Source: a bacterium (lineage in GTDB: Bacteria > UBA10199 > 2-02-FULL-50-16 > JAJFLM01). Taken from it: 64,000 bases of DNA. The stretch's first letter is position 1, and each line of letters begins with the position of its first letter. The stretch lies in assembly GCA_965216315.1 (NCBI GenBank), contig CBDCFN010000016.1, positions 1,408,001 to 1,472,000 on the forward strand, read 5' to 3'. Shown piece after piece: positions 49,388 to 64,000 of the stretch. The notes beneath the pieces were generated by a model. It was not told the origin of the DNA, did no database searches, and worked only from the letters and a program-made list of their open reading frames with translations. Both the position numbers and the translations under genes were made by a program.

Positions 49388-50204
49388 AAAGTTTCTTTTC
49401 CTGCAAGCGCGCCACAAGCTCCGCTGACAAAAGAAAGATATTCGCCAAATAGTAAACCCACACCATCAACACAATCATGACAGTTAACGAACCATAAATA
49501 ACGTCATACCGGTCCCAGCTGGCGACGATGTATTCCCGAAAAATTAAACGTGCCACTCCCGTTAATACCGTGAAAACAATGGCTCCAATAAAGGAATAGC
49601 GCATATACACTTTGCGGTTGGGTATCACCGTTGTCCCAAAAAAGAAGGCTCCAAAGGCAACAAAGAAAAAGAAAAGATCTCCCGACATTGAAAAGACTGC
49701 GGCAGGAGCCAGCAACTTGGCTTTGACTAAGGTAATCTGAAAAAGATGAAGGATACCGGGCGTCGCAAACAATAGGATAAAAACAAATAAGAAACCCACC
49801 GCAAGAATCTTAGAGTGAAAAAAGTTCCGCTTCTTTTCAGTTCGAAACACGCGATCCAAGGCCCTTTCGAGCGCGCTCACCATGAATGACGCTATGACAA
49901 TCAAAATACCGGCACTAATAAGACTGACACGTTGCTTTTTTGCCAGCGCCGCATGCATAACTTGAAAAAGATCGCCAGCGGCGGTCGGAATGACACTCTG
50001 AATAAGCGCCTCAAAACGGGCCACCAAGTCTCCTGAATAACCGACGAGATAAGCCAGAATCGCCACCGTAATCATGGCCAGCGGCAGCATCGAAAATATC
50101 GCATAAAAGGAAATGACCGAAGCCGATTGATTGCAGTCATCATCGCGGTATCCCTTGAGAACCGCTTTAAGCAAAGACCACGCTTTACCCGCAACTGCTT
50201 TCAT
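49374..50204 (-). CDS. YihY/BrkB family membrane protein
   Basis: 'SFYAIFS..P', 'YGSL...LMVWVY' motifs; 6 TM. Confidence 0.88.
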   Translation of the reverse strand: MKAVAGKAWSLLKAVLKGYRDDDCNQSASVISFYAIFSMLPLAMITVAILAYLVGYSGDLVARFEALIQSVIPTAAGDLFQVMHAALAKKQRVSLISAGILIVIASFMVSALERALDRVFRTEKKRNFFHSKILAVGFLFVFILLFATPGILHLFQITLVKAKLLAPAAVFSMSGDLFFFFVAFGAFFFGTTVIPNRKVYMRYSFIGAIVFTVLTGVARLIFREYIVASWDRYDVIYGSLTVMIVLMVWVYYLANIFLLSAELVARLQEKKLSSGR

Positions 50205-50208
50205 GTAA

Positions 50209-51510
50209 CTACTTCCTCTTGCGAAATACGACTCTTACCGGGATTCTCTCGAGACCAAAACGTCTTTGAAACCCATGAACCAGATAACGCCGATACGACT
50301 CGGGCACACCACTCGGCCAATTAGTAAAGACGATAATGATAGGCGGATGGGTTCCCACTTGGGTGGCATAATACAATTTCACCTCACGCCCTTTATACAT
50401 TGGAATGGAATGATGTTCTACTAGATCCGCCAAGGCATCGTTTAACTTAGATGTGCTGATCTCGGCACCGAGCTCGTCATAAAGCTCCATGAGTGCCGGG
50501 ATCACCTCCTCGACGCCTTTACCTGTCAATGCGGAAGAAAACAGCACGGGAAATTGCGGGAGAAAGCGTAACTCATCTCGAATTGTTTTCAACAATTTCT
50601 CACGGCTATCGGGACTCTTAAGATCCATCTTATTCCAGAGCATAATACAGCCTTGCCCCTGCTCTTCGATGTAGCCGGCAATATGCGCATCCTGCTTCAA
50701 CAATCCATCTTCGGCCGACAACACCAACAAGCAAACATCCGCTCGCTCAAGCGCGCGCGTCGCCTGAAGAACAGCAATTTTTTCGAGCTTCCCCCCTTTT
50801 TGCGAGCGACGCCTAATCCCCGCCGTGTCAATCAGGCGGAGGGGCCGGCCTTCGTAATGCAAAGGCGTATCAATACTATCACGCGTGGTCCCCGGCGTTG
50901 AATCAACGACGACGCGCGACTGACCCAGCAAGGCATTGACCAAAGAAGACTTCCCCACATTGGGGCGGCCCACAATCGCGATACGCAGCTCTTTGTCGTC
51001 AACCGCAGCCTTCTCGTCACGCGGCAATTCCTCGACAACGGCATCAAGCAACTCCGCAAGTTGATACCCATGCTCTCCCGATACCGGATATAATTTTTCA
51101 ACCCCTAACTTAAAGAAGTCATTTTGGCGCATCTCATGTGCCGGCACATCAATCTTGTTGACCGCATAAAACACCGGCTTGTTGATCTTACGCAGACGCT
51201 CGACAATCGCCTTTTCTTCCGGAATAAGCCCTGACTCCCCGTCAAAGACGCAAAGAATAATGTCACTTTCTTCAATAGCAAGATCGATCTGCACAGAGAC
51301 CTTGTCATCAATGGACTCTTCATCGAGAGGAAAACCGCCGGTATCGACACAGAGAAATTCGCGTCCACCCCACTCCGCGACGGCAAAATTTCGGTCTCGC
51401 GTGACCCCGGGATAATCATGAGTTAAGGCCTTACGTTGTCCGACAATACGGTTAAAGAGTGTGGATTTACCCACATTGGGACGGCCAATTATAGCGATGG
51501 TTGGTCTCAT
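50209..51510 (-). CDS. der: Ribosome biogenesis GTPase Der
   Basis: Two 'GRPNVGKS' G-domains and KH-like C-terminus. Confidence 0.98.
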   Translation of the reverse strand: MRPTIAIIGRPNVGKSTLFNRIVGQRKALTHDYPGVTRDRNFAVAEWGGREFLCVDTGGFPLDEESIDDKVSVQIDLAIEESDIILCVFDGESGLIPEEKAIVERLRKINKPVFYAVNKIDVPAHEMRQNDFFKLGVEKLYPVSGEHGYQLAELLDAVVEELPRDEKAAVDDKELRIAIVGRPNVGKSSLVNALLGQSRVVVDSTPGTTRDSIDTPLHYEGRPLRLIDTAGIRRRSQKGGKLEKIAVLQATRALERADVCLLVLSAEDGLLKQDAHIAGYIEEQGQGCIMLWNKMDLKSPDSREKLLKTIRDELRFLPQFPVLFSSALTGKGVEEVIPALMELYDELGAEISTSKLNDALADLVEHHSIPMYKGREVKLYYATQVGTHPPIIIVFTNWPSGVPESYRRYLVHGFQRRFGLERIPVRVVFRKRK

Positions 51511-51542
51511 GAGAGAATCTCTAGATATTCAGCTGCGCGCGC

Positions 51543-52634
51543 TTAATCTACCGGCAGCCGTAACTCATTGCGGTGTTCGTTTTTTAGGTACCAATCAACT
51601 AAAGTGTTCATATAGCTGCCGACCTCCGGACATTCGATCCCCTCTTGCTTCAGGACGGCTTGCGCCTGGGAACTATCATAATCGGCACCATGGTTCATAT
51701 ACACGACCGACTCTTGTGGAAAGCCCAGGAGTTTTCGCACCGGCTTGACCTTGGCTAACATCGAAAGAAGACCTGCCGGTATCAAGCCACGCGGCCGCGG
51801 ACAACCCAAAGCCTTCGCTAAGCCGCGGTAGACCTCTCCTGAAGTCCAGGGCCGTGGATCCGTGATGTGATACGTCTTTCCAACCGTATCGTCACGGGCC
51901 GCTATCGCCGCTGAAGCTTCAACGACATAGCTGACCGGAACCATATTAAACTTTGATTTCATCGGGCCCACATGCGGAACCGGAACCTTGCCCCAGCGTT
52001 TGAGAAAGTTGAGTAAAAAATAGGGGCCGTCAAATTTGGCCGTCTCTCCCGTGCGATGATCGCCGACGACGACACCATAGCGATAAATCGTTACCGGCAA
52101 CTCCGGCATCGCCTCACGGACCAGGACCTCTGCATCATGCTTGGTGGATTCATAAAAATTCTTGAACCCCTGGCTGTCGCCATTCAACAACTCCTCTTCC
52201 TTAACGACACCCAAGCGGTCTCCCGAGACATACGCCGTACTCACATACTGCAAGCGCCGCAACTGCTTACACTGCTTCGCCAAGTCAAGGACATGACGTG
52301 TCCCTTCGACATTCACCTGCTCCGCAACCTTGGGTCCGACATCCAGGCGATACACCGCGGCCAGATGCCACCACTCACCTGGATCGTTTTTCATCGTCTC
52401 CAAGACTTTGCTATCTTCGATACCCAAATTGGGCTGAGTGATATCCCCTTCAATCAGTTCGACGGGAAGGTCCGCAAGATCGTTGGCAACCGATTCCTGG
52501 GCCATTTTCAGAAAGCGCTGATCCGGGGTGCGGAGGACAATCAACCAGATCTTGTCGAACTTTTGGCGCTTCACGAGTTCACGTAACAAGCGTGTCGCAA
52601 TGAAACCCGGATAGCCGGTCATGAATAGATACAT
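51543..52634 (-). CDS. Extended SDR / thioester-reductase-like (NAD_binding_4) protein
   Basis: 'TGYPGFIA', 'HLAA', 'VSTAYVSG', 'YESTK'. Confidence 0.88.
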   Translation of the reverse strand: MYLFMTGYPGFIATRLLRELVKRQKFDKIWLIVLRTPDQRFLKMAQESVANDLADLPVELIEGDITQPNLGIEDSKVLETMKNDPGEWWHLAAVYRLDVGPKVAEQVNVEGTRHVLDLAKQCKQLRRLQYVSTAYVSGDRLGVVKEEELLNGDSQGFKNFYESTKHDAEVLVREAMPELPVTIYRYGVVVGDHRTGETAKFDGPYFLLNFLKRWGKVPVPHVGPMKSKFNMVPVSYVVEASAAIAARDDTVGKTYHITDPRPWTSGEVYRGLAKALGCPRPRGLIPAGLLSMLAKVKPVRKLLGFPQESVVYMNHGADYDSSQAQAVLKQEGIECPEVGSYMNTLVDWYLKNEHRNELRLPVD

Positions 52635-52646
52635 AACAACCCTCTG

Positions 52647-52720
52647 GGCGGGTCCTGCCGCTTTCGCAATCCTTTGGCTGCGTCTGAAGTGACGTTCCCA
52701 AGGATCGCTCGCGTCACCCG
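52647..52720 (+). repeat. 74-bp palindromic intergenic repeat, copy 1
   Basis: 66/74 identical to the reverse complement of 55511-55584; internal stems. Confidence 0.85.
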
Positions 52721-52767
52721 CCTCATTTGCAGTCTATTAACAATGCGACGCAAGCCCCTTTTGAATG

Positions 52768-52841
52768 TGGCGGTGGAGGGATTCGAACCCCCGACACAAC
52801 GGATATGAGCCGTTTGCTCTAACCGACTGAGCTACACCGCC
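52768..52841 (-). tRNA. tRNA-Met(CAT), probably elongator; 3' CCA not encoded
   Basis: GGCGGTGTAGCTCAGTCGGTTAGAGC-AACGG-CTCATAT-CCGTT...GGTTCGAATCC-CTCCACCGCCA cloverleaf; paired first base argues against initiator; Ile2 not excluded. Confidence 0.92.
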
Positions 52842-52956
52842 CGACTACGCTTCAATTTTCGCTAAAGCTTCGTCGGACAAGCTAAGTTCCATTCAATCTC
52901 AACCTGTCCACCGAAGCTCGTTCTTTAATACGAGCGAAGGTGGAAGCTACACCGCC
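52842..52956. repeat. REP-like palindromic insert flanked by a 12-bp duplication of the tRNA 5' end
   Basis: AGCTACACCGCC at 52830-52841 and 52945-52956; inner hairpin TCCACCGAAGCTCGT...ACGAGCGAAGGTGGA. Confidence 0.65.
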
Positions 52957-52962
52957 TAATAC

Positions 52963-54516
52963 CTACTGCGCTTTCAACTTACGGCTCCTCGCAATCATCT
53001 TCATCAAGCCCTTAATGCGCTTCACGATCCCTTTTGCAAAAAAAGCATCGGCCATGGCCAGAAAAAAATTAATGCGCGCTTGATCGTAGGTATACCACCA
53101 CAGATCCTTCATAAAGGCCATTTTATTAATATGAACATGTTTCGGCTCAACCATCTCAAGAAAACCCGTCTTGCCATGAGTTCGACCGATGCCACTCCAC
53201 TTGGGCCCGCCCCATGGCGTCTGCGGCAAGGCATAGGTGTAGACGTTTTCGTTAATCGTAACCGTCCCGGCCTCCAATTGCCGCGCCAGCTTTTCCCCGC
53301 GACGGCGGCTCTTGGTCCATACCGAAGCCGTCAAGCCATAGGGCGTATCATTCGCCTTGGCAATGGCCTCCGCTTCGTCCTTGAACGTCATGATCGGCAA
53401 AACGGGCCCAAAGGTTTCTTCACTCACGACGTCCATCGAATCCGTGACATTTTTAAGCAAGGTCGGTGGGTAAAAATAGCCGGACTTATCCTGGAGTCGC
53501 TTACCGCCGGTTAATGCGACGGCACCCGCTTGTAGCGCCGCCTTCACTTGCGCTTCCACTTTATTGAGCTGCATCTCGTTATTGAGCACCGTGACATCGG
53601 CTTCCGGATTCGTTCCTATGCTCTGCTTGAGTTGCTGCGTCTTCGCAACCAGCTGCTGCTCAAACGGCTCCGCAATATCTTCATGAACGTACAAACGCTC
53701 TACGGAGGCACAGATCTGTCCATTATTCGAAAAAGCCCCCCACACCGCGGCACTCGAAGCCACATCCAAATTGGCGTCTTTGCAAACAATCATCGGATCC
53801 TTGCCACCTAACTCTAAGCAAATTGGCTTTAAGTGTTCCGCGGCAGCGGCCATAATTTTCTTACCCGTTCCTACGCTCCCGGTGAAAAATATTTTATCGA
53901 CCTCCGAGTTGATCAATGCCGCGCCGGTCATCCCGTCACCGGTTACAACTTCGATAACTCCCGCCGGAAAACCCGCCGCGCGCGCAAGCTCCCCTATCTT
54001 TTCACCGATCAACGGTGTGTACTCGGAAGGCTTCAACACAACCGTGTTGCCCGCCATCACCGTCATCATGACCTGACCCGCAGGGATCGAGAACGGATAA
54101 TTCCACGGCGCAATCACGCCGACAGTCCCGAGCGGCACATATTCGATGTAACTGGAACGACCCATCAAATCCCATTTGCCCAACCAGATACGCTGCCGTT
54201 TCAAGATCTTGGCCGCATTTTTGGCAAAGTACGTACAAAGGTCCATCACCGGCACGAGATCCGAACTGAAGGCTTCGGCAAGGGGCTTGCCGTTCTCCAG
54301 TGCAATGAGTTCTGCAAGCACTCTTAATTGGCAACGGATCTGTTCCCGAAACTCGAGGACCAACTGACCACGCTCGCGAAAGCTTAAGGCCTGCCACCCT
54401 TCGGCGGCCTTCTGCCCCCGCTCGACCGCCGCTTGCACGGCCGCCGCATCAGCGACGGGGAGTTCCGCAATTGTTTCCAGGGTCGCAGGGTTGATCGATT
54501 TAATGGTTCGAGTCAT
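52963..54516 (-). CDS. Aldehyde dehydrogenase family protein
   Basis: 'PWNYP', 'FTGS', 'LELGGK', 'GQICAS', 'ETFGP'. Confidence 0.95.
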   Translation of the reverse strand: MTRTIKSINPATLETIAELPVADAAAVQAAVERGQKAAEGWQALSFRERGQLVLEFREQIRCQLRVLAELIALENGKPLAEAFSSDLVPVMDLCTYFAKNAAKILKRQRIWLGKWDLMGRSSYIEYVPLGTVGVIAPWNYPFSIPAGQVMMTVMAGNTVVLKPSEYTPLIGEKIGELARAAGFPAGVIEVVTGDGMTGAALINSEVDKIFFTGSVGTGKKIMAAAAEHLKPICLELGGKDPMIVCKDANLDVASSAAVWGAFSNNGQICASVERLYVHEDIAEPFEQQLVAKTQQLKQSIGTNPEADVTVLNNEMQLNKVEAQVKAALQAGAVALTGGKRLQDKSGYFYPPTLLKNVTDSMDVVSEETFGPVLPIMTFKDEAEAIAKANDTPYGLTASVWTKSRRRGEKLARQLEAGTVTINENVYTYALPQTPWGGPKWSGIGRTHGKTGFLEMVEPKHVHINKMAFMKDLWWYTYDQARINFFLAMADAFFAKGIVKRIKGLMKMIARSRKLKAQ

Positions 54517-54517
54517 T

Positions 54518-55447
54518 TTACAATTTGATTTTATCTAATATCTTTTGGGCCGACTCATAGGGATTCGTTCCATTTCCCTGAATAAGTTTTGATTCGGAAA
54601 CTTTTTTACTGACTTCTTCTAAGATAATTTCATGCGTTTCTTGAGTCGCCAACTGCTTGCGGCGCTCATCACTCAAGCCCTGTTGACGAAGGAATCGCCT
54701 GTGTTCATCGATGGCTTCGATAAGTTTATCGACGCCGACATCATCGCGCGCCTGCACCAAAAGCACGGGGACCTTCCATGTGGAATTTGTTTCCGAATTC
54801 CCTCGGCTACTCTGACTGATATCGATCATCGCCATCAGTTCTTGGGCCATTTGATCCGCCCCGGCGCGATCCGCTTTATTCACGACGAAAATGTCCGCGA
54901 TTTCCAGTATGCCCGCCTTCATAGTTTGGATTGTATCGCCTGATTCGGGGGTCAAAACGACGATCGTCGTTTCCGCAATCCCCATGATATTCAGTTCGGT
55001 CTGGCCCACTCCAACAGTCTCAACAATCGCCTCATCAAAACCGAAGGCATCGATCAATTTGACCATCTCACGGGTCGCGCGCGACACGCCACCCAGACTA
55101 CCCCGTGTTCCGAGGCTGCGAATAAATACCTGGTCGTCGCCGGCATGCTCCTGCATCCGGATACGGTCCCCCATCACGGCCCCACCGCTGAACGGACTGG
55201 AGGGATCAATCGCGACGACCCCGACGCTCTTACGGGCGGCCCGCAAATGGGCAATCAGTCGGTCGACCAGTGTACTCTTGCCGGCGCCCGGAGGTCCGGT
55301 CACGCCAATGGTATGGACGTGTCCACAACGCTCTTGGATCTCCTGCATAATGGAAAACACACCCTCGGCGCGGTTTTCTACGAGGGTCATCAGTCGCGAG
55401 AGTGCCAGGGGGTCTTTTTGAAGTAACTTTTCAACGAGTGGATGCAT
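54518..55447 (-). CDS. meaB: Methylmalonyl-CoA mutase-associated GTPase MeaB/ArgK
   Basis: 'GPPGAGKST', 'DPSSPFSGGA..GDRIRM', 'ETVGVGQ', 'NKAD'. Confidence 0.95.
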   Translation of the reverse strand: MHPLVEKLLQKDPLALSRLMTLVENRAEGVFSIMQEIQERCGHVHTIGVTGPPGAGKSTLVDRLIAHLRAARKSVGVVAIDPSSPFSGGAVMGDRIRMQEHAGDDQVFIRSLGTRGSLGGVSRATREMVKLIDAFGFDEAIVETVGVGQTELNIMGIAETTIVVLTPESGDTIQTMKAGILEIADIFVVNKADRAGADQMAQELMAMIDISQSSRGNSETNSTWKVPVLLVQARDDVGVDKLIEAIDEHRRFLRQQGLSDERRKQLATQETHEIILEEVSKKVSESKLIQGNGTNPYESAQKILDKIKL

Positions 55448-55510
55448 GGGTTTATTGAAACTATCGGAGTAAGTAGTTGAAATCAATTGAAATACCGTGA
55501 GAACCTGCAA

Positions 55511-55584
55511 CGGGTGGCGCGAGTAATCCTTGGGAACGTCTCTTCAGACGCAGCCCAAGGATTGCGACGGCGACAGGACCCGCC
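55511..55584 (-). repeat. 74-bp palindromic intergenic repeat, copy 2 (inverted relative to copy 1)
   Basis: Reverse complement matches 52647-52720 with 8 mismatches. Confidence 0.85.
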
Positions 55585-55728
55585 AACTTCTACTATAAAC
55601 TGTGGTTTTAGGCCCCCATCTGGGGTGTAAAACCCCCTATTTCCGGATCAGCTGAGCAACGTGATCAGCGCGACTGTCGATTATATAAATAATTACATGG
55701 ACTTATAATGTCCTCCCATGTCGGCGCG

Positions 55729-55745
55729 TTGGCACGGGACTTGCT
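55729..55745 (+). promoter_or_regulatory. Sigma54 (-24/-12) promoter
   Basis: TTGGCACGGGACTTGCT, a near-perfect TGGCAC-N5-TTGC; IHF-like box at 55689-55705. Confidence 0.85.
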
Positions 55746-55789
55746 ATATACTACGGTGAAGGATCAGTTCCTTCAGGAGAAAGAATAAT

Positions 55790-56824
55790 ATGTCAGATCC
55801 AGTAGGACAATACGAAGGCGTCAGCGAAATGATCGCCGAGATGATGGAGCAGATGCAGGAGTCTACGAATCAGCAGATTCGTCAGTCCAAGCGTACCATG
55901 ATCACGGAGATGGTCACGGCCCGCCAGCGGCGTGCCACGCAGTCCGTTTTCAATCAACTGGCTGACAACCTGATGGACATTCAATCGGCCCGTAATCTCC
56001 GCAAAGAACTCAAGATGGGGGCGCTTGAAACCGCTTCCGTCCCGGAGTGGAAATCCGCTGAAGAGGTCCGCGCCGAGGCGCCCGAAGTGAGCAAAGGCGG
56101 CGGCGATCCGCTCATCGCCAAATACCAAGGTCTCGCCGACAACTTAGGCGCGATTGTCGCTCACCTTGAAGGCGGTGGTAGCGTTGATGATAAAATGAGC
56201 GAGGCCGGACTCGAAGGCTTTGGGACCATGACGATTCGTCAGTTTCTCGAGGCCCAGAATATCAATCCCAACGACCTCAACGAAATCAAAGAAGCTCAGC
56301 AGGATGCCCAAGCCGTTGCCGATAAAATTGATGAATGGATGTCCAGTGCCACGGATCAATCAGTCGAGGAATTCATGGATGCCCTGTGGGACCGTGCCGA
56401 TAACCTCGATCCGGATACAGTCCAGGAGATCATGGATGCCGTTGAGCACTATAGTGAGATGAAGCGGATCCAAGGTGTCATTGATGAGGCCATTGCCGAT
56501 GGCGCGACCAGCGGGTTTGAAATCATCCTCTATATGACCGATACGTCAAAGGTTGCCGGCGGGGAAGAAATGCTTGAATATCTCGCCGCGCATGGCATTT
56601 TCCTTGAAGGCTCGGCCGATGAGGTCAAAAATGCCATCCAGGCCGAAGTCGACTCCGCCAAGGCCCACATGGATGCCGTAATCGAAGCGAACATGGATGA
56701 CAGCTATGTCGGCGAATCCAGCGTGAGCACGCAAAGTGCGATGCAGACCGCTAGCGACGAACTCAGCGCTCCGGACAGCTCAGAAGAGGACGAAGAGCTG
56801 GATGAGATCTTAAACGACCTCTAG
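55790..56824 (+). CDS. Acidic alpha-helical orphan protein (candidate secreted/structural protein)
   Basis: AGGAG RBS; Asp/Glu/Met-rich; no signal peptide; sigma54 promoter upstream. Confidence 0.75.
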   Translation: MSDPVGQYEGVSEMIAEMMEQMQESTNQQIRQSKRTMITEMVTARQRRATQSVFNQLADNLMDIQSARNLRKELKMGALETASVPEWKSAEEVRAEAPEVSKGGGDPLIAKYQGLADNLGAIVAHLEGGGSVDDKMSEAGLEGFGTMTIRQFLEAQNINPNDLNEIKEAQQDAQAVADKIDEWMSSATDQSVEEFMDALWDRADNLDPDTVQEIMDAVEHYSEMKRIQGVIDEAIADGATSGFEIILYMTDTSKVAGGEEMLEYLAAHGIFLEGSADEVKNAIQAEVDSAKAHMDAVIEANMDDSYVGESSVSTQSAMQTASDELSAPDSSEEDEELDEILNDL

Positions 56825-56901
56825 TCTCTCCCGGCGCCCCAATTACTTGAAAATATTGAAAATTTGGCCTGTCTGCATTAGTATGGCAGCTGCGGAGTGC
56901 T

Positions 56902-57600
56902 ATGGCCGATTTAAAGCGCGCAAAAGAGATCATGGATTGGCTTTGGAAGCAGATGCACCGAGGCAATCTCAAAATGCCCGCCGATCAACTCATCTTTGAG
57001 GGCGAGCACGACCTCGTCTATCTGTACAACACCGGCTTTGTCGATACGGATAAGTTCTCGCTAGATAAGTGGATCCAGGCCTTCCGCGAAAGCCGGCAAC
57101 GGGACGGCAGTTACAGCCTGACCCATGAACAATGGCTGGATAAAGTCACCTATCGCTACAATGAAAAAGTGGAAGCCCCCTTTGATATAATGGCCATCAG
57201 GGAAGGAGAATGGACTGAATCGGAGTGGAAAGACTTTGTCAAAGAAAAGATCATGCCAGAGACAATTTTTACCTATGATCAGTTCTTAAAAGGCTTTGAA
57301 GAAGGCAAGAAGGCCGGCAAGCTTAAAAATGGCATGGTCATTGTAACGCAGGAACTCAAACAAACTTGGCTGCAGGCAATTAACAAAAACCCTTCACCTC
57401 AACGTCACCGCGCTCTCGCAGTCCACCGTATTCGTCAGCATGAAAACTTTGAATCTCCGTCTGGGATGCAAAAATCAAAAGGGGCTGCGAAACGACCTGT
57501 AGTTACTGAACAGGAAAAGACTAAATATGATAAAAGTCCTGACCGACAGAAACAAATGACAGGTAAACTCAGTGATCTGCTTTCGGGATCTAAAAAGTAG
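56902..57600 (+). CDS. Hypothetical protein, paralogue family member 1
   Basis: Full-length similarity to 63065-63601; GGAG RBS. Confidence 0.8.
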   Translation: MADLKRAKEIMDWLWKQMHRGNLKMPADQLIFEGEHDLVYLYNTGFVDTDKFSLDKWIQAFRESRQRDGSYSLTHEQWLDKVTYRYNEKVEAPFDIMAIREGEWTESEWKDFVKEKIMPETIFTYDQFLKGFEEGKKAGKLKNGMVIVTQELKQTWLQAINKNPSPQRHRALAVHRIRQHENFESPSGMQKSKGAAKRPVVTEQEKTKYDKSPDRQKQMTGKLSDLLSGSKK

Positions 57601-57609
57601 TATTGACCC

Positions 57610-58974
57610 ATGTTTAAGGTCGCACTCATTACCGCTAAAAAAAGAAGCCCCGAGTATCTTTTTCAAACTTCTGGCATTGATCTTGGTACCATGTCGCTCG
57701 AGGCCTATATATCAGCACAAACCGATGATGTTGATGTCTTGGTCACTGAAGAAATAGAAGATATCATTAAATACAGCCCCGACCTGCTAGGCATTTCAAC
57801 AACTTCAGAAAACTACTTTCTTGCAACAAAGATCGCGAAAGAAGTCCGAACTAAAATTGATTGCCGGGTTGTCGTTGGGGGTGCCCACATAACTGGATGT
57901 CCCGAATCGCTCACGCACGATTTCGAACTCGGAGTCCGCGGCGAAGGCGAAGAAACTTTTTTAGAAGTCATCGAAACTTTTAAACGCGGCGAAAATAATC
58001 CCAACAATTACAAAGATATTCAAGGCATCGCATATCACGGAGAAAATGGCCCGATACTAACACCACTACGACCGCCCATAAAAGACCTGGGAGCTCTCCC
58101 CGTTCCGAACCGGAGAAAATGGGTCGAGAAGATAGGCCTCCCCTTTTTGATGACAGTAAGAGGCTGTCCGTTTCACTGTTGGTTCTGCGCGGCTCGTGAA
58201 ACCTATACGGGACTCCGCTACTTTCCAGTTGATCACGCTATCGCCGAAATAAAAGATATCATCGACAATTTTCATCCCCAATGCATCCGTATTTTTGATG
58301 ATGTTTTCAATCTCAGCAAGGATCGCGTCAAAGAATTTACTTCGCGCATGATCTCAGAGGGGCTTACAAAAGACGTCTCCTATATCTGCTGGGTACGAGC
58401 AGAGCTACTCGACCAAGAATACGTAGACTTATTGAGCAAAGCCAATTTTGTTCATGTTTCATTTGGGGTGGAGTCAGCAGACGAGGCGCTGATGAAAAAA
58501 ATGAAAGGTGGGCGTATTGACTTGCAATCGGTTCAATCAGCTATCGATATGCTGCATGCTGCGGGAATCAATATCGCTTGCACCTTTATCATTGGGACAC
58601 CTGGTGAAACGACGAAGGAACTCGATGAAACCTACGAATTCATTGAGAAAAATTTTGACAAACTGTTGGATGTCGAAATTAACCCTTTGATTCCCATGCC
58701 TGCCACGCCATTGTGGACTCATGCAGAAAAACGCGGACTCGTCAGCAAGGACATGAATTGGGATATATTATCCGACACCGGAGTCCTGCTCGCCTTTAAT
58801 AGTGATGACTATATATACTTGAATGATGCGATGCCTAAAGAAGTTTTCCTCTCTTATGTCGAAAAATTTAAGGCGCTCTATAAAAGAATCATAGAAAAAC
58901 CGCAAATAGCTGAATTTGCCGAAAAAACTTTTCCAATGTCCGTATTTCCTGCAAGGCTTAAGCGCCTGAGTTAA
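57610..58974 (+). CDS. B12-binding radical SAM protein (class B methyltransferase-like)
   Basis: N-terminal cobalamin-binding region ('VVVGGAH', 'GEGE'); 'RGCPFHCWFC'; 'GVES'; 'FIIGTPGET'. Confidence 0.92.
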   Translation: MFKVALITAKKRSPEYLFQTSGIDLGTMSLEAYISAQTDDVDVLVTEEIEDIIKYSPDLLGISTTSENYFLATKIAKEVRTKIDCRVVVGGAHITGCPESLTHDFELGVRGEGEETFLEVIETFKRGENNPNNYKDIQGIAYHGENGPILTPLRPPIKDLGALPVPNRRKWVEKIGLPFLMTVRGCPFHCWFCAARETYTGLRYFPVDHAIAEIKDIIDNFHPQCIRIFDDVFNLSKDRVKEFTSRMISEGLTKDVSYICWVRAELLDQEYVDLLSKANFVHVSFGVESADEALMKKMKGGRIDLQSVQSAIDMLHAAGINIACTFIIGTPGETTKELDETYEFIEKNFDKLLDVEINPLIPMPATPLWTHAEKRGLVSKDMNWDILSDTGVLLAFNSDDYIYLNDAMPKEVFLSYVEKFKALYKRIIEKPQIAEFAEKTFPMSVFPARLKRLS

Positions 58975-59995
58975 GGTGATACTTATCAAAAATCTTGGCG
59001 GGGTCGCCACCCAAGATCCGGATTAATGCTCTTAAGTCATCGAGGGTATACTCAACCACATCCGGCATTCCTGCGTAGGCATCAATCACCTCAAAGGGAG
59101 TTTTATCACATTCCTCGGCCAAGATATCGATAAGCTGTAGTGGATAAAGGTCGCGGCGATAGGAAGCGAGATAGTAAGTATACCAATGAGGACGCGTCTG
59201 ATTCGCAAAAATGGGACGCACAAATTCGCCAGCCTCGATCAGCTTATTCAGATTAATCGAACATTTTAATTTAAGCTGTTGCATGACAATCACTAAGGCC
59301 TCTAAAAAAACATTACCTGCATCCTTACCCATTCCTAAGAGACTTGCATCGACAATCGTACAGCCAGCATCCATGGCTTCAAGTGTATTGGCCAGGGCGA
59401 GCTGCAAGGTATTATGCGCATGAAACCCCAGAGGCTGCTGGCTCACTTTCCGGATCGCTTCGACATAGCGTGTCACTTCACCCGGTAACATACATCCGGT
59501 CGTATCGACGAGATAGACATAATCTACCCCCCAATCCGAAAGCTTTTTGACCGACTCAGCAATTTGTTCAGGTTTCACGGCATAGGATCGCGTCAGTTGA
59601 GCACACACTTCGAGTTTTTCTTGTTGGCAATGCTCGATGAATGGCTTCAAGGGCTCCGGTTGGATAGGAGAAGAAATGAGCCGCACAAAATCATAATACT
59701 CAGCGACCGCACTGATTTCATCTTGGGACGCACAGCGCGGATCCGCGAGGGCTCCAAGCTTGGCCTTTTTCTGTCCGCGTGCCGCCGCCTGGGCATAAGC
59801 GAGATCATCCGCTCCATGAGGATAGCCTTGCTTTTGGGCTCCAACTCCAGCACCGTGACTGGCCTCAATATAGGCCACGCCGGCCGCATCAAGCCGCGCG
59901 ACAATTCCCTCAATCTGCTCTGGAGTATAGGCGAAATCGAGCAGGAAACTCCCGTCACGTATCGTGACATCCATAATTTGAGCGGTACTTGGCAT
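58958..59995 (-). CDS. DmpG-like (4-hydroxy-2-oxovalerate aldolase family) DRE-TIM metallolyase
   Basis: 'DVTIRDG', 'EASHGAG', 'VDTTG', 'HAHN', 'GMGKDAGN'. Confidence 0.85.
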   Translation of the reverse strand: MPSTAQIMDVTIRDGSFLLDFAYTPEQIEGIVARLDAAGVAYIEASHGAGVGAQKQGYPHGADDLAYAQAAARGQKKAKLGALADPRCASQDEISAVAEYYDFVRLISSPIQPEPLKPFIEHCQQEKLEVCAQLTRSYAVKPEQIAESVKKLSDWGVDYVYLVDTTGCMLPGEVTRYVEAIRKVSQQPLGFHAHNTLQLALANTLEAMDAGCTIVDASLLGMGKDAGNVFLEALVIVMQQLKLKCSINLNKLIEAGEFVRPIFANQTRPHWYTYYLASYRRDLYPLQLIDILAEECDKTPFEVIDAYAGMPDVVEYTLDDLRALIRILGGDPAKIFDKYHLNSGA

Positions 59996-60058
59996 AATCC
60001 CTTGAAATTGTTAGAATAATATATCAGCAACTGAGGCGGAAAACAATAAAAAATATAG

Positions 60059-60110
60059 CAATTTCAGATAGTTACACTACGCAACTCGAACACGCCTCAG
60101 GGTCGATAAT
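60059..60110 (+). promoter_or_regulatory. IHF-like box + sigma28-like promoter
   Basis: ATTTCAGATAGTTA-N7-CAAC-N16-GTCGATAAT. Confidence 0.45.
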
Positions 60111-60132
60111 TAAGGCGTAGGAAATTATTACA

Positions 60133-60525
60133 ATGGATTTATACCTTTTTGATAATGATCCCAAGATAGTCCGCCTGAAACCAGGAAAGTTTTTTGGCGT
60201 CGCAGCGGCTGTCGGTGTGGCAGGAGCCGTCGCGGCAGTTGCCGGAGCGGCCATTACCGCTGGAACGACTGCGAGTGAAGGGGCCAAAAACCGGGCTGCT
60301 AGCCAACAGGCGATGTCGATGCAACAGGCCAACGAGAGCGCCCATGCCCAGGACGAAATGGCCGCTCATATGATGCAAGTCTTTCAGGATGACGGCATCG
60401 CGGCAGCGGCCGGTGGAATGGCGCAGAACAACGCGATTGGCCTGATGGGCGTCGGTGGCATGATGGGCCAAGGCGGCGAAGGTGGTCAGGGGGGCCAAGG
60501 CGGCCCGATGGGAATGCCCGTATAA
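60133..60525 (+). CDS. Small Gly/Ala/Met-rich protein A (hydrophobic segment + Gln-rich helix)
   Basis: AGGA RBS; paralogous core with 60546-60974. Confidence 0.75.
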   Translation: MDLYLFDNDPKIVRLKPGKFFGVAAAVGVAGAVAAVAGAAITAGTTASEGAKNRAASQQAMSMQQANESAHAQDEMAAHMMQVFQDDGIAAAAGGMAQNNAIGLMGVGGMMGQGGEGGQGGQGGPMGMPV

Positions 60526-60545
60526 ACTTTTTTTGAGGAGACCAA

Positions 60546-60974
60546 ATGGCAGGCGATACAACCGTACAGAATCAGACTCCGGTAGCACCGCCACCCGCGG
60601 ACACCCTTTCCGGCGGCGGAGCCGGTGCAACCGGATCCGAAGGCGCGCAGGCCGCCGGTGGCATCGCTGGGGCTGTAGCCGCACTTGGCGGATCCATTGC
60701 CGGCGGAGTCATCACTGCCAACAATGGCGCCAACCAACGCGCCGCCCTCATTGAAGGGACCCGCGCACAAATTCATGCGCAACAGACCGAGCGATCAATG
60801 GCCATGGCCGTCATGTCACAGCAACTCGGTGAACTTGAAAGTAGACAAATGATTGCCGCGTCATTGGGAGTCGGCGGAGCGGGCCAAGGCACGACCACCG
60901 ATACGACGCAAACGGATCCCAATCTCAGTCCAGATCGTCCAACCGGGACGCCTCAAAATCGCAACTTCGCCTAA
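60546..60974 (+). CDS. Small Gly/Ala/Gln-rich protein B
   Basis: GAGGAG RBS; 15/29 ungapped identity to the core of protein A. Confidence 0.8.
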   Translation: MAGDTTVQNQTPVAPPPADTLSGGGAGATGSEGAQAAGGIAGAVAALGGSIAGGVITANNGANQRAALIEGTRAQIHAQQTERSMAMAVMSQQLGELESRQMIAASLGVGGAGQGTTTDTTQTDPNLSPDRPTGTPQNRNFA

Positions 60975-61654
60975 TCTAACCGTTCTTGCGGAACCAAAAC
61001 TTCATGAGCCCGCAACCACTTGGTCGCGGTCCACTTCTCACCGATTTCTACCGGGCAAGACGCATGCAGCGAATTCTCATCGATCTGCTCACCGACCGAA
61101 CAATTCTTGAAGTAAAGCGCGGCCCCTTGCTTCGGCCGCACCCCCAGCTTCAGCTTGGGGAAGGTTGTTTCGCCGCCCCGCTCCACATCCGATAAATAAA
61201 GGAGCACGGTGCCGACCCGCTGGCCGCCTCCCGCCAGCAACGAATGACTGCCCGCATATTGGGGATCAAAATAGTCATGATGCGCCTTATATTCTTTGCC
61301 GATTTGGTAGTGCAGCACGTGAAACGGTTCGCCTTTGTTGACCGGATGCTGCACCCACGCCGCAATGCGCGCCTCCAGACAACTCACGCGCATGTTTTGT
61401 TGCCGCTTCAAGAAGACTCCCTGACTCGTCCGCATGCCGACAAATTGTTCATCCGGCAAGCCAGCAATATTGGTTAATCCGGACGGCTTTAAATCAGGCT
61501 GTGCCAGTTCGATTAAATACGCGCATTCCTCCGGACTGAGAAACTCCGGCCAGATTTCAATATAGGGGCTCACGCTCAGGACTTCTCGTCGCTGCGGTGT
61601 CACATAGCGCCACCGTTTCCAAAAACGGAAATCGATACTAGGAAATAGTCGCAT
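60971..61654 (-). CDS. Fe(II)/2-oxoglutarate dioxygenase, prolyl 4-hydroxylase-like
   Basis: 'FLSPEEC', 'RTS', 'HHD' (HxD), 'GGQR..TVLLYL..VE.GGET.FP', 'LH...PV..GEKW'. Confidence 0.92.
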   Translation of the reverse strand: MRLFPSIDFRFWKRWRYVTPQRREVLSVSPYIEIWPEFLSPEECAYLIELAQPDLKPSGLTNIAGLPDEQFVGMRTSQGVFLKRQQNMRVSCLEARIAAWVQHPVNKGEPFHVLHYQIGKEYKAHHDYFDPQYAGSHSLLAGGGQRVGTVLLYLSDVERGGETTFPKLKLGVRPKQGAALYFKNCSVGEQIDENSLHASCPVEIGEKWTATKWLRAHEVLVPQERLD

Positions 61655-61760
61655 CCCTTAACCATCTCATCGCGCTAGGCTAATAAGCGATATTGCCATA
61701 AACTATTGAAATTGTTAAGGTAATCAAGAGCGCTCACGCAAAAAAACGTGAAATACTCAA

Positions 61761-61811
61761 TGATTACATGACGTTACAGCTAACAACCCGAGCGGCGCAT
61801 CCGCCGATAAT
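61761..61811 (+). promoter_or_regulatory. IHF-like box + sigma28-like promoter
   Basis: GATTACATGACGTTA-N7-CAAC-N15-GCCGATAAT; -10 matches the FliA consensus GCCGATAA exactly. Confidence 0.5.
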
Positions 61812-61817
61812 AAGGGG

Positions 61818-62474
61818 ATGACGATGCAAGCGCAGCAGCGGCGGGTCCCGCCGCATATTCAGCATCCTGACGGCCATACGGTCTATCTAATCGATGACGC
61901 CGAGATGGATGAATTGCTCCCTCCGCCCACGGAGCTTCCAATCCCTTGTAGTGGCTTTATGGACCATGAGGGCCACATCCACTACGAGCTCTGCCATTTT
62001 AGCTGGTACCCGCCGCGAGGCTTCTGGAACAAGCTCAAGATCAGCTTTAACATGAAAGACTATTACCTCTCCACCCCGCGCCATCTCTGCGAAGGAGGCC
62101 TCCATCGAGACCCCAATGAGCTTGTCGGCGCCGGCGTTGCGACCTATTACCCCCAGGATCACCATGCCGAACTCGTCCACCTCGGGCTCCGCCCCCGGAG
62201 CGAGATACCCGAATTTGACGTAAGTCTTCGAAAAGACGCGATTTTTCGCTTTCAGCGCAGCTACAATCGCTTCATTCAGTGGTTGGGCGGGACCCGCCTG
62301 ACGACCTATACCGCCATTATTCCGGATGACAAGATGCAGGCCCTCGGCTGGAAACCGTTTAAGTTCTCCAGCATGAGAGAGCGCTTAAAATATTTTTGGT
62401 ACTGTTTACCCCCGAGCTTATTTGGTAAGCTACGTGCATACGAAATAAATTTGCCCGTAGACGAAACTGGATGA
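61818..62474 (+). CDS. Hypothetical protein, possible GNAT-like fold
   Basis: AAGGGG RBS; 'AELVHLGLRP...LTTYT...MQALGWKP' loosely resembles GNAT motifs A/B. Confidence 0.6.
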   Translation: MTMQAQQRRVPPHIQHPDGHTVYLIDDAEMDELLPPPTELPIPCSGFMDHEGHIHYELCHFSWYPPRGFWNKLKISFNMKDYYLSTPRHLCEGGLHRDPNELVGAGVATYYPQDHHAELVHLGLRPRSEIPEFDVSLRKDAIFRFQRSYNRFIQWLGGTRLTTYTAIIPDDKMQALGWKPFKFSSMRERLKYFWYCLPPSLFGKLRAYEINLPVDETG

Positions 62475-62556
62475 GCCTAAGAGCCCGATAATAATCATGT
62501 AGGCGGCTCTATCGAGTCGCCTCGCCTAACAAGCTTTTTAGCGAAGGAGTTTTTAT

Positions 62557-62943
62557 ATGTCTTCAGGATCCCCACCGCCGGCGCCACCGCCAGTCGATTA
62601 TAATCCCGCCATGAGCGTTCAGGCCATGGCCAGTGCTGACAAGATGGCCATGTTCGTCGGAGGCCAGGTTCAGCAAACCATGTTGCAGACCAACATGATG
62701 AACCTCATGGGCATGCGCATGCAGATGATGCAGGAAGACAAGCTCGATGCCAAACTCGAGATTGCCTCCATGAATTACGAAGCGCGCATGCAAGAGGCCC
62801 AGTGGCGTCATGAAGAAAGAACCCAGGAACTGGCCAATAACCACGTCGAAGCCTTAGTCGACAAGGGCATGATGGATCAGGAACAGTTCTCCGACATCCG
62901 CTACCCTTATCAATGGGGCGGTTCGGGAGATGCAGGCGCCTAA
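62557..62943 (+). CDS. Small Met/Gln-rich protein C with poly-Pro N-terminus
   Basis: AAGGAG RBS; 'MSSGSPPPAPPPVDYNPA'; followed by its own terminator. Confidence 0.8.
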   Translation: MSSGSPPPAPPPVDYNPAMSVQAMASADKMAMFVGGQVQQTMLQTNMMNLMGMRMQMMQEDKLDAKLEIASMNYEARMQEAQWRHEERTQELANNHVEALVDKGMMDQEQFSDIRYPYQWGGSGDAGA

Positions 62944-62976
62944 GTAAAGAATATTATATGCTGCAGCTCGTTCAGC

Positions 62977-63015
62977 AAACCCACTTAGAGCGATTGCTTT
63001 AAGTGGGTTTTTTTT
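62977..63015 (+). terminator. Rho-independent terminator
   Basis: Stem AAACCCACTTAGAGC/GCTTTAAGTGGGTTT followed by a T-run. Confidence 0.85.
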
Positions 63016-63064
63016 CGGCTCATCTTGACGCGATTCCATGATACAGATACCCTACTCTCCACTC

Positions 63065-63601
63065 ATGTCTTTCTTCACGGATATCTGGGACAAGATTGCC
63101 AAGGACGATGGAACCGGAACACGCGTCATTAGGTATGGCTCCCTTGATGACTTGGTCTTTCTCTACGCCTCGGGTTTTGTCGACGCCGAAAAATACGATC
63201 TTAAAGCCTGGCTTGAAGCCTTCGATTCAAGCAAACAGAGTGATGGTTCTTACGTCATCAACAAGGGGCACTGGCTTGAAAAGGAAAAGTTCCATTATCA
63301 TGGCCCGATCCGCGATCCGTTTGAAGCCCACCTCATCCCGGAAAAAGAATTCACCGAAGCCGAACTGATTGAGCTCTTTAATCAGTGTATTGTCCCCTCG
63401 TCACAGGCGACCAAAGAATCCATTCCTAATTTCATCCGCCTGTATGAGAATCGAAACCTGCTTAAGAACGGCAAAATGATGATGACCAAAGAGATCAAGC
63501 AGGAATTACATGACTTCATCGAAGCCTTTCCATCCCCCTTGCGCGTGTTGGAAACCCATCTACACGAAATGCTCCCTTCCGCGGAGAAGAAGCCAGAATA
63601 A
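63065..63601 (+). CDS. Hypothetical protein, paralogue family member 2
   Basis: Start moved to ATG 63065 by alignment with member 3 (MSFFTDIWDK vs MALFDEIWKK). Confidence 0.8.
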   Translation: MSFFTDIWDKIAKDDGTGTRVIRYGSLDDLVFLYASGFVDAEKYDLKAWLEAFDSSKQSDGSYVINKGHWLEKEKFHYHGPIRDPFEAHLIPEKEFTEAELIELFNQCIVPSSQATKESIPNFIRLYENRNLLKNGKMMMTKEIKQELHDFIEAFPSPLRVLETHLHEMLPSAEKKPE

Positions 63602-63780
63602 CCCTTGCAGCGCTAGACGCAACGCAGCATTATCAGTTTGAGAATCCCAATTAGCCGAACAATTAAGGCCTCTTCCAACCTCACGTTTTTCCAAGACTTT
63701 TTCAGCTCGCCTGCTTGACGTCACCTTTTAAAAGAGATAATCTGAGATCGTGAGTAATCTCAGGGGGTTAGTGTAAGCTC

Positions 63781-64000
63781 ATGGCGCTGTTTGATGAAAT
63801 TTGGAAAAAGGTTTCCGAAGACGATGGCACGGGCACGCGGGTCATCAAATACGGGTCCAATGAGGACCTCGTCTTCATCTATGCCTCGGGCTTTGTGGAC
63901 TCCGCCAAATACGACCTCAAATCCTGGCTGGATGCCTTCGAGCCGAGCAAACAAGAAGATGGTACCTACAAGGTTTCGCAGGCGCAATGGGCGGAAAAAG
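63781..64000 (+). CDS. Hypothetical protein, paralogue family member 3 (3'-truncated; absent from ORF track)
   Basis: Manual translation MALFDEIWKKVSEDDGTGTRVIKYGSNEDLVFIYASGFVDSAKYDLKSWLDAFEPSKQEDGTYKVSQAQWAEK aligns ungapped with member 2. Confidence 0.85.
   Translation, partial: MALFDEIWKKVSEDDGTGTRVIKYGSNEDLVFIYASGFVDSAKYDLKSWLDAFEPSKQEDGTYKVSQAQWAEK

Follow-up and report, generated by a model that had tools for sequence, protein, structure and literature searches.

The right-hand end of the window, by which we mean the whole 64,000-nucleotide stretch of bacterial DNA under analysis (G000:C16:1408001-1472000, from a genome of 2.96 Mb that is 98.3% complete), carries an operon whose core is formed by a family of paralogous proteins, here called PAR, and by small helical proteins encoded alongside them. 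This is a core operon of its phylum, vertically inherited and kept at a fixed chromosomal place, and the tailoring enzymes encoded within it are accessory and interchangeable. We tentatively favour, at slightly less than an even chance, the reading that PAR serves the small helical proteins as their dedicated chaperone or adaptor. An earlier note on this DNA had listed eleven open reading frames (ORFs) from 55790 to the window end, all of which were found at the coordinates given there, and had proposed that they form either a locus resembling those for ribosomally synthesized and post-translationally modified peptides (RiPPs) or a set of modified, exported membrane-inserting proteins; it overlooked the likely role of the paralogue family in binding the small proteins, to which a co-fold points.

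All three PAR genes of this genome lie on the forward strand: a short-tailed copy, PAR-A (56902..57600, 232 aa), with a radical S-adenosylmethionine (SAM) enzyme gene directly 3' of it; a tail-less copy, PAR-B (63038..63601, 187 aa from 63038), for which the start at 63065 given in the earlier note suits the family alignment better and is the likely one; and a long-tailed copy, PAR-C (63781..64488, 235 aa, running past the window end at 64000), which is of the universal, lapA-proximal type. The three do form one family, as had been claimed, since they align at 30% identity to the first copy, with 42 columns invariant, and the PAR profile matches exactly three copies in G000 (E 4e-99 to 5e-115); a scan of genome contigs using the three paralogues gave one locus only. 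A profile search at E<=1e-8 found PAR in 80 of the 93 genomes of the class (59 of the 63 high-quality ones), and a search of the 41 nearest genomes found it in 38. A search at the rank of phylum gave the same 93 genomes, so that phylum and class coincide. The family, represented in the operon core by a protein of some 240 aa, has only 141 sequence clusters among 1.84 billion representative proteins, and the 26 matches from a word-indexed search are without a Pfam domain and all named 'hypothetical protein'. PAR has no family match in Pfam, NCBIfam or PHROGs and no match to a solved fold; against the sequences of solved structures the best E was 0.32, and the Protein Atlas gave nothing usable.

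The AlphaFold2 model of PAR-C, made from 22 sequences, has a confident helical domain (the predicted local confidence, pLDDT, of residues 1-170 exceeds 90), in which paired helix-loop-helix units are predicted to form two lobes; after it comes a disordered, Lys-rich tail with a conserved L-K-D-L-Q-K-like motif at its end. Two signature motifs, Y-x-x-G-F-V-D and P-S-P-x-R, are nearly invariant in the family. We leave the fold unassigned, noting a weak EF-hand-like topology: Foldseek returned nothing from the PDB at E<=0.001, its top rows being EF-hand proteins (E 0.036-0.4, TM 0.17-0.33), and VIA-align, which is independent of Foldseek, found no chain with Z>=5, the best score being 4.6 and the matches mostly EF-hand pairs over residues 1-81. 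Among the invariant columns there is no acidic calcium loop of the DxDxDG type. As a separate observation, the N-terminal lobe stands alone at the C-terminus of the distant proteins P0136, P0139, P0141, P0144 and P0153, four of which have a signal peptide and then a helical region ahead of it and the fifth a PDZ domain, and it may work outside the cytoplasm in other lineages.

The evidence for binding comes from a co-fold of PAR-C with Q9 (62557..62943, forward strand, 128 aa), a Met/Gln/Ala-rich helical protein whose family alignment (A6) holds 16 members from 10 loci. Residues 1-175 of PAR-C (22-row alignment) and Q9 (16-row alignment) were given to the predictor with our own alignments, and the interface score (ipSAE) was 0.83 (0.82-0.84 in three runs), the best of three controls scoring 0.00; the contact agreement of the runs was at least 44% and the pLDDT of Q9 at least 52. 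Of 157 solved complexes, 116 attain this mark, as do 2 of 215 mismatched pairs, a calibration that is only rough here because our own alignments were used. The contacts of lowest error join residues 63-82 of Q9, a conserved helix (the L-D-x-K-L-x-I-A-x-L-N-Y block, which is the best-conserved part of the Met-rich family), to residues 29-38 and 155-170 of PAR, which include or abut the two signature motifs. In the predicted complex, PAR clamps the conserved helix of this Met-rich protein.

Proteins comparable to Q9 accompany PAR throughout the phylum. Forty related loci were fetched and mapped along with our own, giving 41 loci, by means of a simple ORF caller (which picked antisense ORFs at Gly/Ala-rich genes in at least our own locus), and linkage was counted by hand from the printed coordinates. 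Between one and five small helical proteins, with high contents of Ala, Gln, Met, Gly and Glu, are usually encoded ahead of PAR: in the maps, read by hand, small co-oriented ORFs of this composition stand upstream of PAR in 36 of the 41 loci, the remaining five being either cut by contig ends (three) or devoid of small ORFs (two). These companions fall into families (Met-rich, Ala/Gln-rich, acidic, and types with an uncharged Gly/Ala/Val/Ile start), and the most conserved among them are helical and 100-230 aa long. In comparison with the other ORFs of the same loci, they are enriched in Ala (12.7% vs 7.8%) and Gln (6.4% vs 3.2%), they more often begin with Met-Gly (21/107 vs 18/311) and they more often end in an aromatic-Gly(-x-Pro) motif (26/107 vs 2/311 control ORFs). 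The Met-rich and Ala/Gln-rich families are probably related, judging from their profile comparison (hhalign probability 75.7%, E 2.4e-5). A single superfamily for all the companions was rejected, as only these two families connect.

Three further companions are encoded in the window, all on the forward strand. Q1 (55790..56824) is an acidic helical protein of 344 aa (E11 A11 D9) and the first operon gene in this genome; its codon score is 0.43, and its orthologues stand upstream of a PAR gene in G001 and G002 (28.5% identity, E 5e-17; cluster ACIDIC47). Q5 (60133..60525, 130 aa) is Gly/Ala/Met-rich and includes roughly 25 residues of uncharged Gly/Ala/Val sequence; the motif MDLYLFDN...P.KF at its N-terminus is met again in four small proteins of other genomes, three in G017 and one in G002. 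Q6 (60546..60974, 142 aa) is Gly/Ala-rich and has a GAGGAG ribosome-binding site upstream. That Q5, Q6 and Q9 are genuine small low-complexity proteins, as the earlier note had assumed, is backed by codon usage (log-odds 0.31 for Q5, 0.23 for Q6 and 0.31 for the third, against -0.02 to 0.09 for the antisense ORFs at small genes, -0.02 being that opposite Q5), while their likeness to each other is one of composition: the three-way alignment has only 7 invariant columns, and Q5 against Q6 gives a BLASTP E of 0.30. Orthology of Q5 or Q6 with their positional counterparts, or with each other, was rejected, nothing significant having been found by BLASTP.

The place of the operon in the chromosome is fixed across 24 families. 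The usual order is a MeaB GTPase gene on one strand, followed on the opposite strand by the small Ala-rich proteins, enzyme genes where present, PAR and, in some cases, the aldolase gene, and then again on the first strand by lapA, HIT, ihf, sppA and rpsA. Within four genes after the last PAR, one of lapA, HIT or ihf is found in 28 of the 41 loci, and MeaB is among the eight genes that precede the first PAR in 18 of the 41. Many of these loci end at contig breaks, and we noticed that many metagenome-assembled genomes break at or near the PAR locus (L019, L020, L023, L025, L027, L037 and others), which may be due to the paralogous copies or to the low-complexity genes; all the linkage counts are lowered by these breaks. 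Insertions of the toxin-antitoxin type occur in other genomes, with AbiEii and AbiEi (Pfam) at L053:5553-7323 and, at L052:8612-9069, two small ORFs between companion and PAR that resemble a HicAB pair by eye only, so the PAR site tolerates insertions.

The fixed position also bears on the suggestion that the locus is the remnant of a phage or mobile element, to which we assign an almost negligible probability. What brought it to mind was the composition of the small Gly/Ala/Gln/Met-rich proteins, which resembles that of microvirus DNA-pilot proteins, and an integrase gene some 9 kb further right. Against this stand, besides the fixed place, the ordinary GC content of the locus and a consistent lack of matches: tblastn of PAR and two companions against phages and plasmids found none, no relative of PAR was present in IMG/VR contigs or in the viral structure library (0 matches at E<=0.001), no PHROG matched the core proteins, and the PHROGs matches at the locus were to the radical SAM and 2-oxoglutarate (2OG) oxygenase domains only. 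A microvirus pilot-protein or phage remnant is thereby contradicted. The integrase-like ORF itself (tyrosine type, 386 aa, L002:17457-18617, read by eye) stands after a rhomboid-like gene and is followed by orphan ORFs, and it may belong to a separate island. A defence system was also rejected, since PADLOC gave generic matches only (PDC-M51A for the radical SAM enzyme, and the 2OG domain) and none for PAR or the small proteins.

In the mechanism that we propose, the two-lobed helical domain of PAR would clamp the conserved amphipathic helix of the small proteins, would keep these coiled-coil-prone proteins soluble and would deliver them to membrane or envelope assembly, possibly to export. 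Tailoring-enzyme genes, differing by lineage, would have been recruited into the operon, their products either tailoring the small proteins or making a small molecule used with them. In particular, the B12-dependent radical SAM methylase and the DmpG-like aldolase would more probably be a pair making or altering a small molecule used with the complex, the GNAT-fold protein Q8, coupled to the Met-rich family, may acylate the Met-rich protein, and the prolyl 4-hydroxylase (P4H)-type oxygenase Q7 would be a recent acquisition. The genes, the family with its distribution, the synteny and the linkage of the enzymes are observed, and the binding of Q9 by PAR is a model prediction; that PAR is a chaperone, that a membrane is involved and that anything is modified are points that we infer.

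The enzymes were identified as the earlier note had called them. Q3 (57610..58974, forward strand, 454 aa) has a radical SAM domain (PF04055, 5.8e-24) and an N-terminal B12-binding domain (PF02310, 2.7e-11), its CxxxCxxC motif reads GCPFHCWFC in translation, and these features class it as a class B (cobalamin-dependent) radical SAM enzyme with a putative methyltransferase activity. It stays below the cut-offs of all 25 NCBIfam models listed, including ApyD, PhpK, BchE, HpnJ and the glutamine methylase of methyl-coenzyme M reductase (MCR), the best score being 114 bits against a cut-off of 750 (ApyD). Q4 (58958..59995, reverse strand, 345 aa), convergent with the Q3 gene, is an HMGL-like (DmpG-like) aldolase by Pfam (5.7e-38), falling below the DmpG-type cut-offs (NF006049, 201 bits vs 229; TIGR03217, 177 vs 286). 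A literature search found no paper joining radical SAM, 4-hydroxy-2-oxovalerate aldolase and cobalamin. Two pathways in which such enzymes might have been placed were rejected: a catabolic DmpFG pathway, as G000 lacks both the DmpG communication domain and the DmpF dehydrogenase (PF07836, PF09290), and a phosphonate or phosphinate pathway (with a RhiG-type aldolase and a PhpK-type radical SAM enzyme), as phosphoenolpyruvate (PEP) mutase (PF13714) was not found in G000 while control genomes were matched.

The association of these enzymes with the small proteins and the paralogues, also claimed earlier, holds in part. Orthologues of Q3 (E<=1e-50) occur in 23 of the 93 genomes, and in 19 of these the distance to a PAR gene is at most 5 kb; the four others are on other contigs (G007, G028) or in genomes with no PAR match (G068, G071), and the contig of G071 bears MeaB and two companion-like ORFs, so that it is the same locus, cut short. 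The remaining 70 genomes lack the enzyme, and most of them retain the small proteins. Homologues of Q4 (E<=1e-30) occur in 44 of the 93 genomes, 28 of which have one no more than 6 kb away from PAR. The part of the claim that does not hold concerns three genomes (G028, G068 and G007), in which the radical SAM and aldolase genes are adjacent away from PAR, among further radical SAM- and aldolase-like genes and without small proteins, and from this adjacency it follows that the two enzymes form a module of their own.

This module is an argument for the main rival explanation, which we consider unlikely, namely that the enzymes belong to an independent small-molecule pathway, kept near PAR by conserved gene order, and that no protein is modified. 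Such a pathway would consist of two aldolase-type enzymes and the B12-dependent C-methylase, joined in some genomes by an aminotransferase, methyltransferases or a carbamoyltransferase; a branched keto acid, a sugar acid and a component of the envelope are examples of what it might produce. HMGL-like aldolases act on small molecules, the pair in G027 is neighboured by enzymes of a sugar type (DegT, an NDP-hexose C-methyltransferase-type domain, a CmcI-type methyltransferase and GT2), and synteny extends over the entire region, MeaB and lapA not excepted. The arrangement of the genes speaks against this explanation: the enzyme genes are embedded in the operon, in the same orientation and at short distances (the stop of PAR-A is at 57600, the start of the radical SAM gene at 57610), the order small protein, radical SAM enzyme, PAR, aldolase recurs in G008, G083 and others, and radical SAM and PAR genes alternate in tandem in G018 (where the radical SAM enzyme is of a second, non-B12 type). 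The presence in the operon of GNATs and of the peptide-backbone enzymes YcaO and TfuA, and the exclusion of the phosphonate pathway (no PEP mutase) and of the DmpFG pathway (no DmpF or DmpG_comm), weigh on the same side.

Q8 (61818..62474, forward strand, 218 aa) is the possible GNAT protein of the earlier note, and the support for this is at the level of the fold. Its AlphaFold2 model (pLDDT 77.9) gives 26 PDB matches at E<=0.001 in Foldseek, all rows shown being GNAT enzymes (TM 0.29-0.50), and VIA-align gives Z scores of 8.6, 8.2 and 7.7 for acetyltransferases (best 1y9w_B, root-mean-square deviation 3.3 over 105 aligned residues), so a divergent GNAT fold is supported by the modelled structure. 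Q8 has no Pfam match, its best E against the sequences of solved structures is 0.38, and the Protein Atlas offered leads only (unnamed clusters, YkoP, GNAT_C). The acyl-CoA binding motif of GNATs is Q/R-x-x-G-x-G/A, of which the Q8 sequence shows only an imperfect version, QWLGGT. Present in 13 of the 93 genomes, Q8 is co-oriented with a gene of the Met-rich family, at most three genes upstream of it, in all seven mapped loci (7/7), and it stands divergently beside such a gene in an eighth (G002).

For the P4H-type Fe/2OG oxygenase Q7 (60971..61654, reverse strand, 227 aa), Pfam agrees with the earlier identification (2OG-FeII_Oxy_3, PF13640, 9.6e-15), and H-H-D with a distal His can be read in the translation, the substrate being only putative. 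The enzyme occurs in 2 of the 93 genomes, and in the other one (G001) its gene is flanked by a SelO-like gene and the gene of a secreted protein, without small proteins. Q7 is a lineage-specific insertion outside the conserved operon, and the idea that a prolyl hydroxylase belongs to the system is not supported: an orthologue in an unrelated context, without the small proteins, is what the earlier note itself had named as speaking against it.

In other genomes, different enzymes take up the operon position: an Asp/Asn hydroxylase, a WelO5-like oxygenase, classical GNATs, SAM methyltransferases (a TylF-type included), a carbamoyltransferase, an HpcH-type aldolase and aminotransferases. YcaO is found in 6 of the 93 genomes, and in two of them YcaO and TfuA follow the aldolase in the PAR operon (L045:5437-7736 in G082 and L068:5833-8074 in G083), adjoined by a Ser/Gly/Ala/Asn-rich ORF of 75-77 aa, which is a candidate thioamidation substrate.

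In the RiPP-like interpretation of the earlier note, the small proteins would be precursors tailored by the B12-dependent radical SAM enzyme, the Fe/2OG oxygenase and the GNAT in the manner of a proteusin, and then released as modified peptides or membrane-inserting products. PoyB/C and PoyI tailor Gly/Ala-rich peptides of the polytheonamide type, and in the PAR locus genes of the same kinds (class B radical SAM, Fe/2OG oxygenase, GNAT fold) are intermingled with small ORFs of low complexity; in several genomes the enzymes have Gly/Ala-rich ORFs of 69-157 aa as neighbours, and the YcaO-TfuA pairs with their small ORF also fit. This much of the interpretation stands, as the enzymes are linked to the operon and further tailoring enzymes (YcaO-TfuA, hydroxylases, GNATs, methyltransferases) occur in it. 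As a whole it is decidedly improbable: the small proteins lack NHLP, Nif11 or any other known leader, and neither a protease, a transporter nor a radical SAM epimerase is present in the locus or downstream. Additionally, the operon core is present in 80 of the 93 genomes, as befits a core phylum operon and not a sporadic biosynthetic cluster, and the enzymes are patchy (radical SAM 23, aldolase 44, Q8 13, YcaO 6 and P4H 2 of 93), the oxygenase being unlinked in the sole other genome that has it. The best-conserved small proteins are helical and 100-230 aa long, not short hypervariable cores, and the aldolase fits the scheme poorly.

A related reading, which we regard as improbable, would keep the protein chemistry and give PAR a different part in it. 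PAR would be a novel type of substrate-recognition scaffold, a phylum-specific, EF-hand-like clamp that holds a conserved helix of the small proteins and presents these to interchangeable tailoring enzymes (the B12-dependent methylase, YcaO-TfuA, Fe/2OG hydroxylases and GNAT acyltransferases), with products that are maybe type III secretion system (T3SS) substrates. If true, it would mean RiPP-like chemistry at protein scale in a core cellular operon rather than in a secondary-metabolite cluster.

Several results weigh against our preferred reading of PAR as a chaperone or adaptor. The binding is a single model prediction, from shallow alignments of our own and with an overall pLDDT for Q9 of 52-54, and the fold searches revealed no likeness of PAR to known chaperones, the weak EF-hand pairs being the best that they offered. 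The acidic and membrane-type companion families did not connect to the others, and relatedness cannot be demonstrated for all companions. The uncharged Gly/Ala/Val/Ile stretch with which many companions start could be a membrane anchor, as far as one can tell from the sequence. With regard to the enzymes, the occurrence of the radical SAM-aldolase pair apart from PAR in G028, G068 and G007 suggests that they may be unrelated to the proteins, an aldolase acting on a protein is not plausible, and the prolyl hydroxylase is not conserved (2/93).

In another rival reading, which we think very improbable, PAR and the small proteins would be the chaperone and the substrates (needle, translocon or effector-like) of the phylum-wide non-flagellar T3SS. 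The substrates of such systems are typically helical and are held by dedicated chaperones that bind one helix. G000 has a cluster with genes of the SctV, D, J, L, N, O, P, Q, R, S and T types, FHIPEP, the export gate, is found in 91 of the 93 genomes, and searches of this 98%-complete genome detected neither the N and C domains of flagellin nor any rod or hook domain. The core cluster, which is complete, lies outside the window, at G000:C16:339000-361000 (L062, L063), and comprises FHIPEP, two FHA/YscD-type genes, YscJ/FliF, FliH/SctL, the ATPase, a YscO-like and a FliK/HpaP-like gene, a FliM-like gene, FliO, FliP, FliQ-type and FliR-type genes, a sigma factor and TPR proteins. Two small proteins encoded there (L062:11541-11996 and L062:9385-9936), with a Gly/Ala hydrophobic stretch followed by a Gln/Ala/Met-rich helix, match the companions in style of composition. 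The PAR operon could encode the missing substrates and chaperone of the system, composition being the sole link. Against it, a distance of about 1.1 Mb separates the two loci, which are not neighbours in the complete genome G075 either, both are near-universal, so that their co-occurrence is uninformative, and PAR is unlike any class of T3SS chaperone. A relationship between the companions and the small proteins of the T3SS cluster was rejected, no significant similarity having been found (E 0.14, 0.82 and 0.29). A flagellar filament was rejected as well, G000 having no flagellin or rod domains.

Regarding the limits of the locus, the earlier note had it run off the right edge of the window, which is correct by 488 bases only: PAR-C stops at window coordinate 64488 and is followed by a housekeeping block with a LapA-like gene, HIT, ihf, sppA, rpsA and aroA. 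The locus is flanked by this lapA-HIT-ihf-sppA-rpsA block on one side and by the MeaB GTPase gene on the other. As stated earlier for the window, no transporter, peptidase or known leader is visible, and the downstream region is alike in this respect, with no leader protease or exporter among the ORFs of 55650-64488 or in the next 10 kb; the SppA encoded downstream is part of the conserved rpsA-sppA-ihf block. The eight ORFs other than the three enzymes have no match passing the cut-offs of Pfam, NCBIfam or PHROGs, and none of Q1, Q5, Q6, Q9 and the PAR copies gave a Pfam or NCBIfam match at E<=0.01.

The upstream motifs said to be shared by several units come down to one 32-nt, sigma-70-like promoter motif. 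One copy (59989..60020, forward strand) lies upstream of Q5 at 60133 and reads TTGGCA, 17 nt, TAGAAT, with TG (10/12 consensus matches); a second, with 78% identity to it, lies at 61693-61724, upstream of Q8 at 61818. A third copy (63% identity) falls within the radical SAM gene. Another sigma-70-like promoter stands at 56856-56884, upstream of PAR-A, and a strong intrinsic terminator, a 15-bp stem followed by a T run (62977..63010, forward strand), comes after Q9. An Rfam scan of 50000-64000 found tRNA-Met only. To the left of the locus we noticed a 74-nt element present as an inverted pair (52647-52720 and 55511-55584, 89% complementary), which encloses the tRNA-Met, an aldehyde dehydrogenase gene and the MeaB gene. 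The element has nested palindromes (ATCCTTGG...CCAAGGAT within CGGGT...ACCCG) and no Rfam match, blastn finds eight copies of it in the genome (82-100% identity, one a 37-nt partial match), and a structured repeat dispersed in the genome is one possible identity for it, a small RNA another.

The interest of the system lies in a protein family that is without a named relative and yet near-universal in one uncultured phylum, in a fixed place and beside fast-evolving small helical proteins, its predicted partners. Judging from the family libraries and from a limited literature search, the PAR operon marks an undescribed, lineage-defining cellular function. Should the enzymes act on these proteins, methylation, thioamidation, hydroxylation and acylation of the RiPP type would extend to structural proteins of the cell, and PAR would provide a new recognition domain for such enzymes. 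Should they not act on proteins, the radical SAM-aldolase pair would still be an undescribed two-enzyme module.

In comparison with known systems, the arrangement resembles that of flagellin. FliS is the chaperone of flagellin, and flagellin glycosylation islands are known. The parallels are the helical, Ala/Gln-rich and Cys-poor proteins with a helical partner of their own, which is predicted in the case of PAR to hold a single conserved helix, and, on the side of the glycosylation islands, the lineage-variable aminotransferase, methyltransferases, carbamoyltransferase and aldolase-type enzymes encoded alongside. The differences are that the flagellin N and C domains (PF00669, PF00700) were not found in G000 and the companions have no Pfam matches, that PAR does not have the FliS fold, that a glycosyltransferase is absent from most PAR loci, and that the N-terminus of many companions is an uncharged stretch which could span a membrane. 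The T3SS chaperone-substrate pairs offer a similar parallel, with the gene of a small, putatively dedicated binding protein beside helical, partly hydrophobic candidate substrates, whereas PAR has no relation in sequence or fold to classes I-III of these chaperones and its locus is far from the T3SS cluster. With calmodulin and other EF-hand proteins, PAR would share two helix-loop-helix lobes and a predicted clamp on a Met-rich amphipathic helix, but its fold scores remain below significance (E >=0.036, Z <=4.6) and it has no loop of the DxDxDG type.

On the side of the enzymes, the proteusin pathway (PoyA with PoyB/C and PoyI) is similar in placing a class B radical SAM enzyme and an Fe/2OG oxygenase beside small Gly/Ala-rich ORFs, to which two relatives of the PAR locus add YcaO and TfuA. 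It differs in its NHLP/Nif11 leader, epimerase, protease and transporter, all absent from the PAR locus, whose operon is phylum-wide, syntenic and vertical and has as its constant parts PAR and helical proteins of 100-230 aa. The tailoring set of MCR (thioamidation by YcaO-TfuA and C-methylation by B12-dependent radical SAM enzymes) differs in that no equivalog cut-off is reached by the enzymes of the PAR system (Q3 matches the model of the MCR glutamine C-methyltransferase at 1.4e-25, far below its cut-off) and in that no MCR is at hand there. The likeness lies in the enzyme classes, which are the same, and in MCR these enzymes act on a folded protein and not on a leader-bearing peptide.

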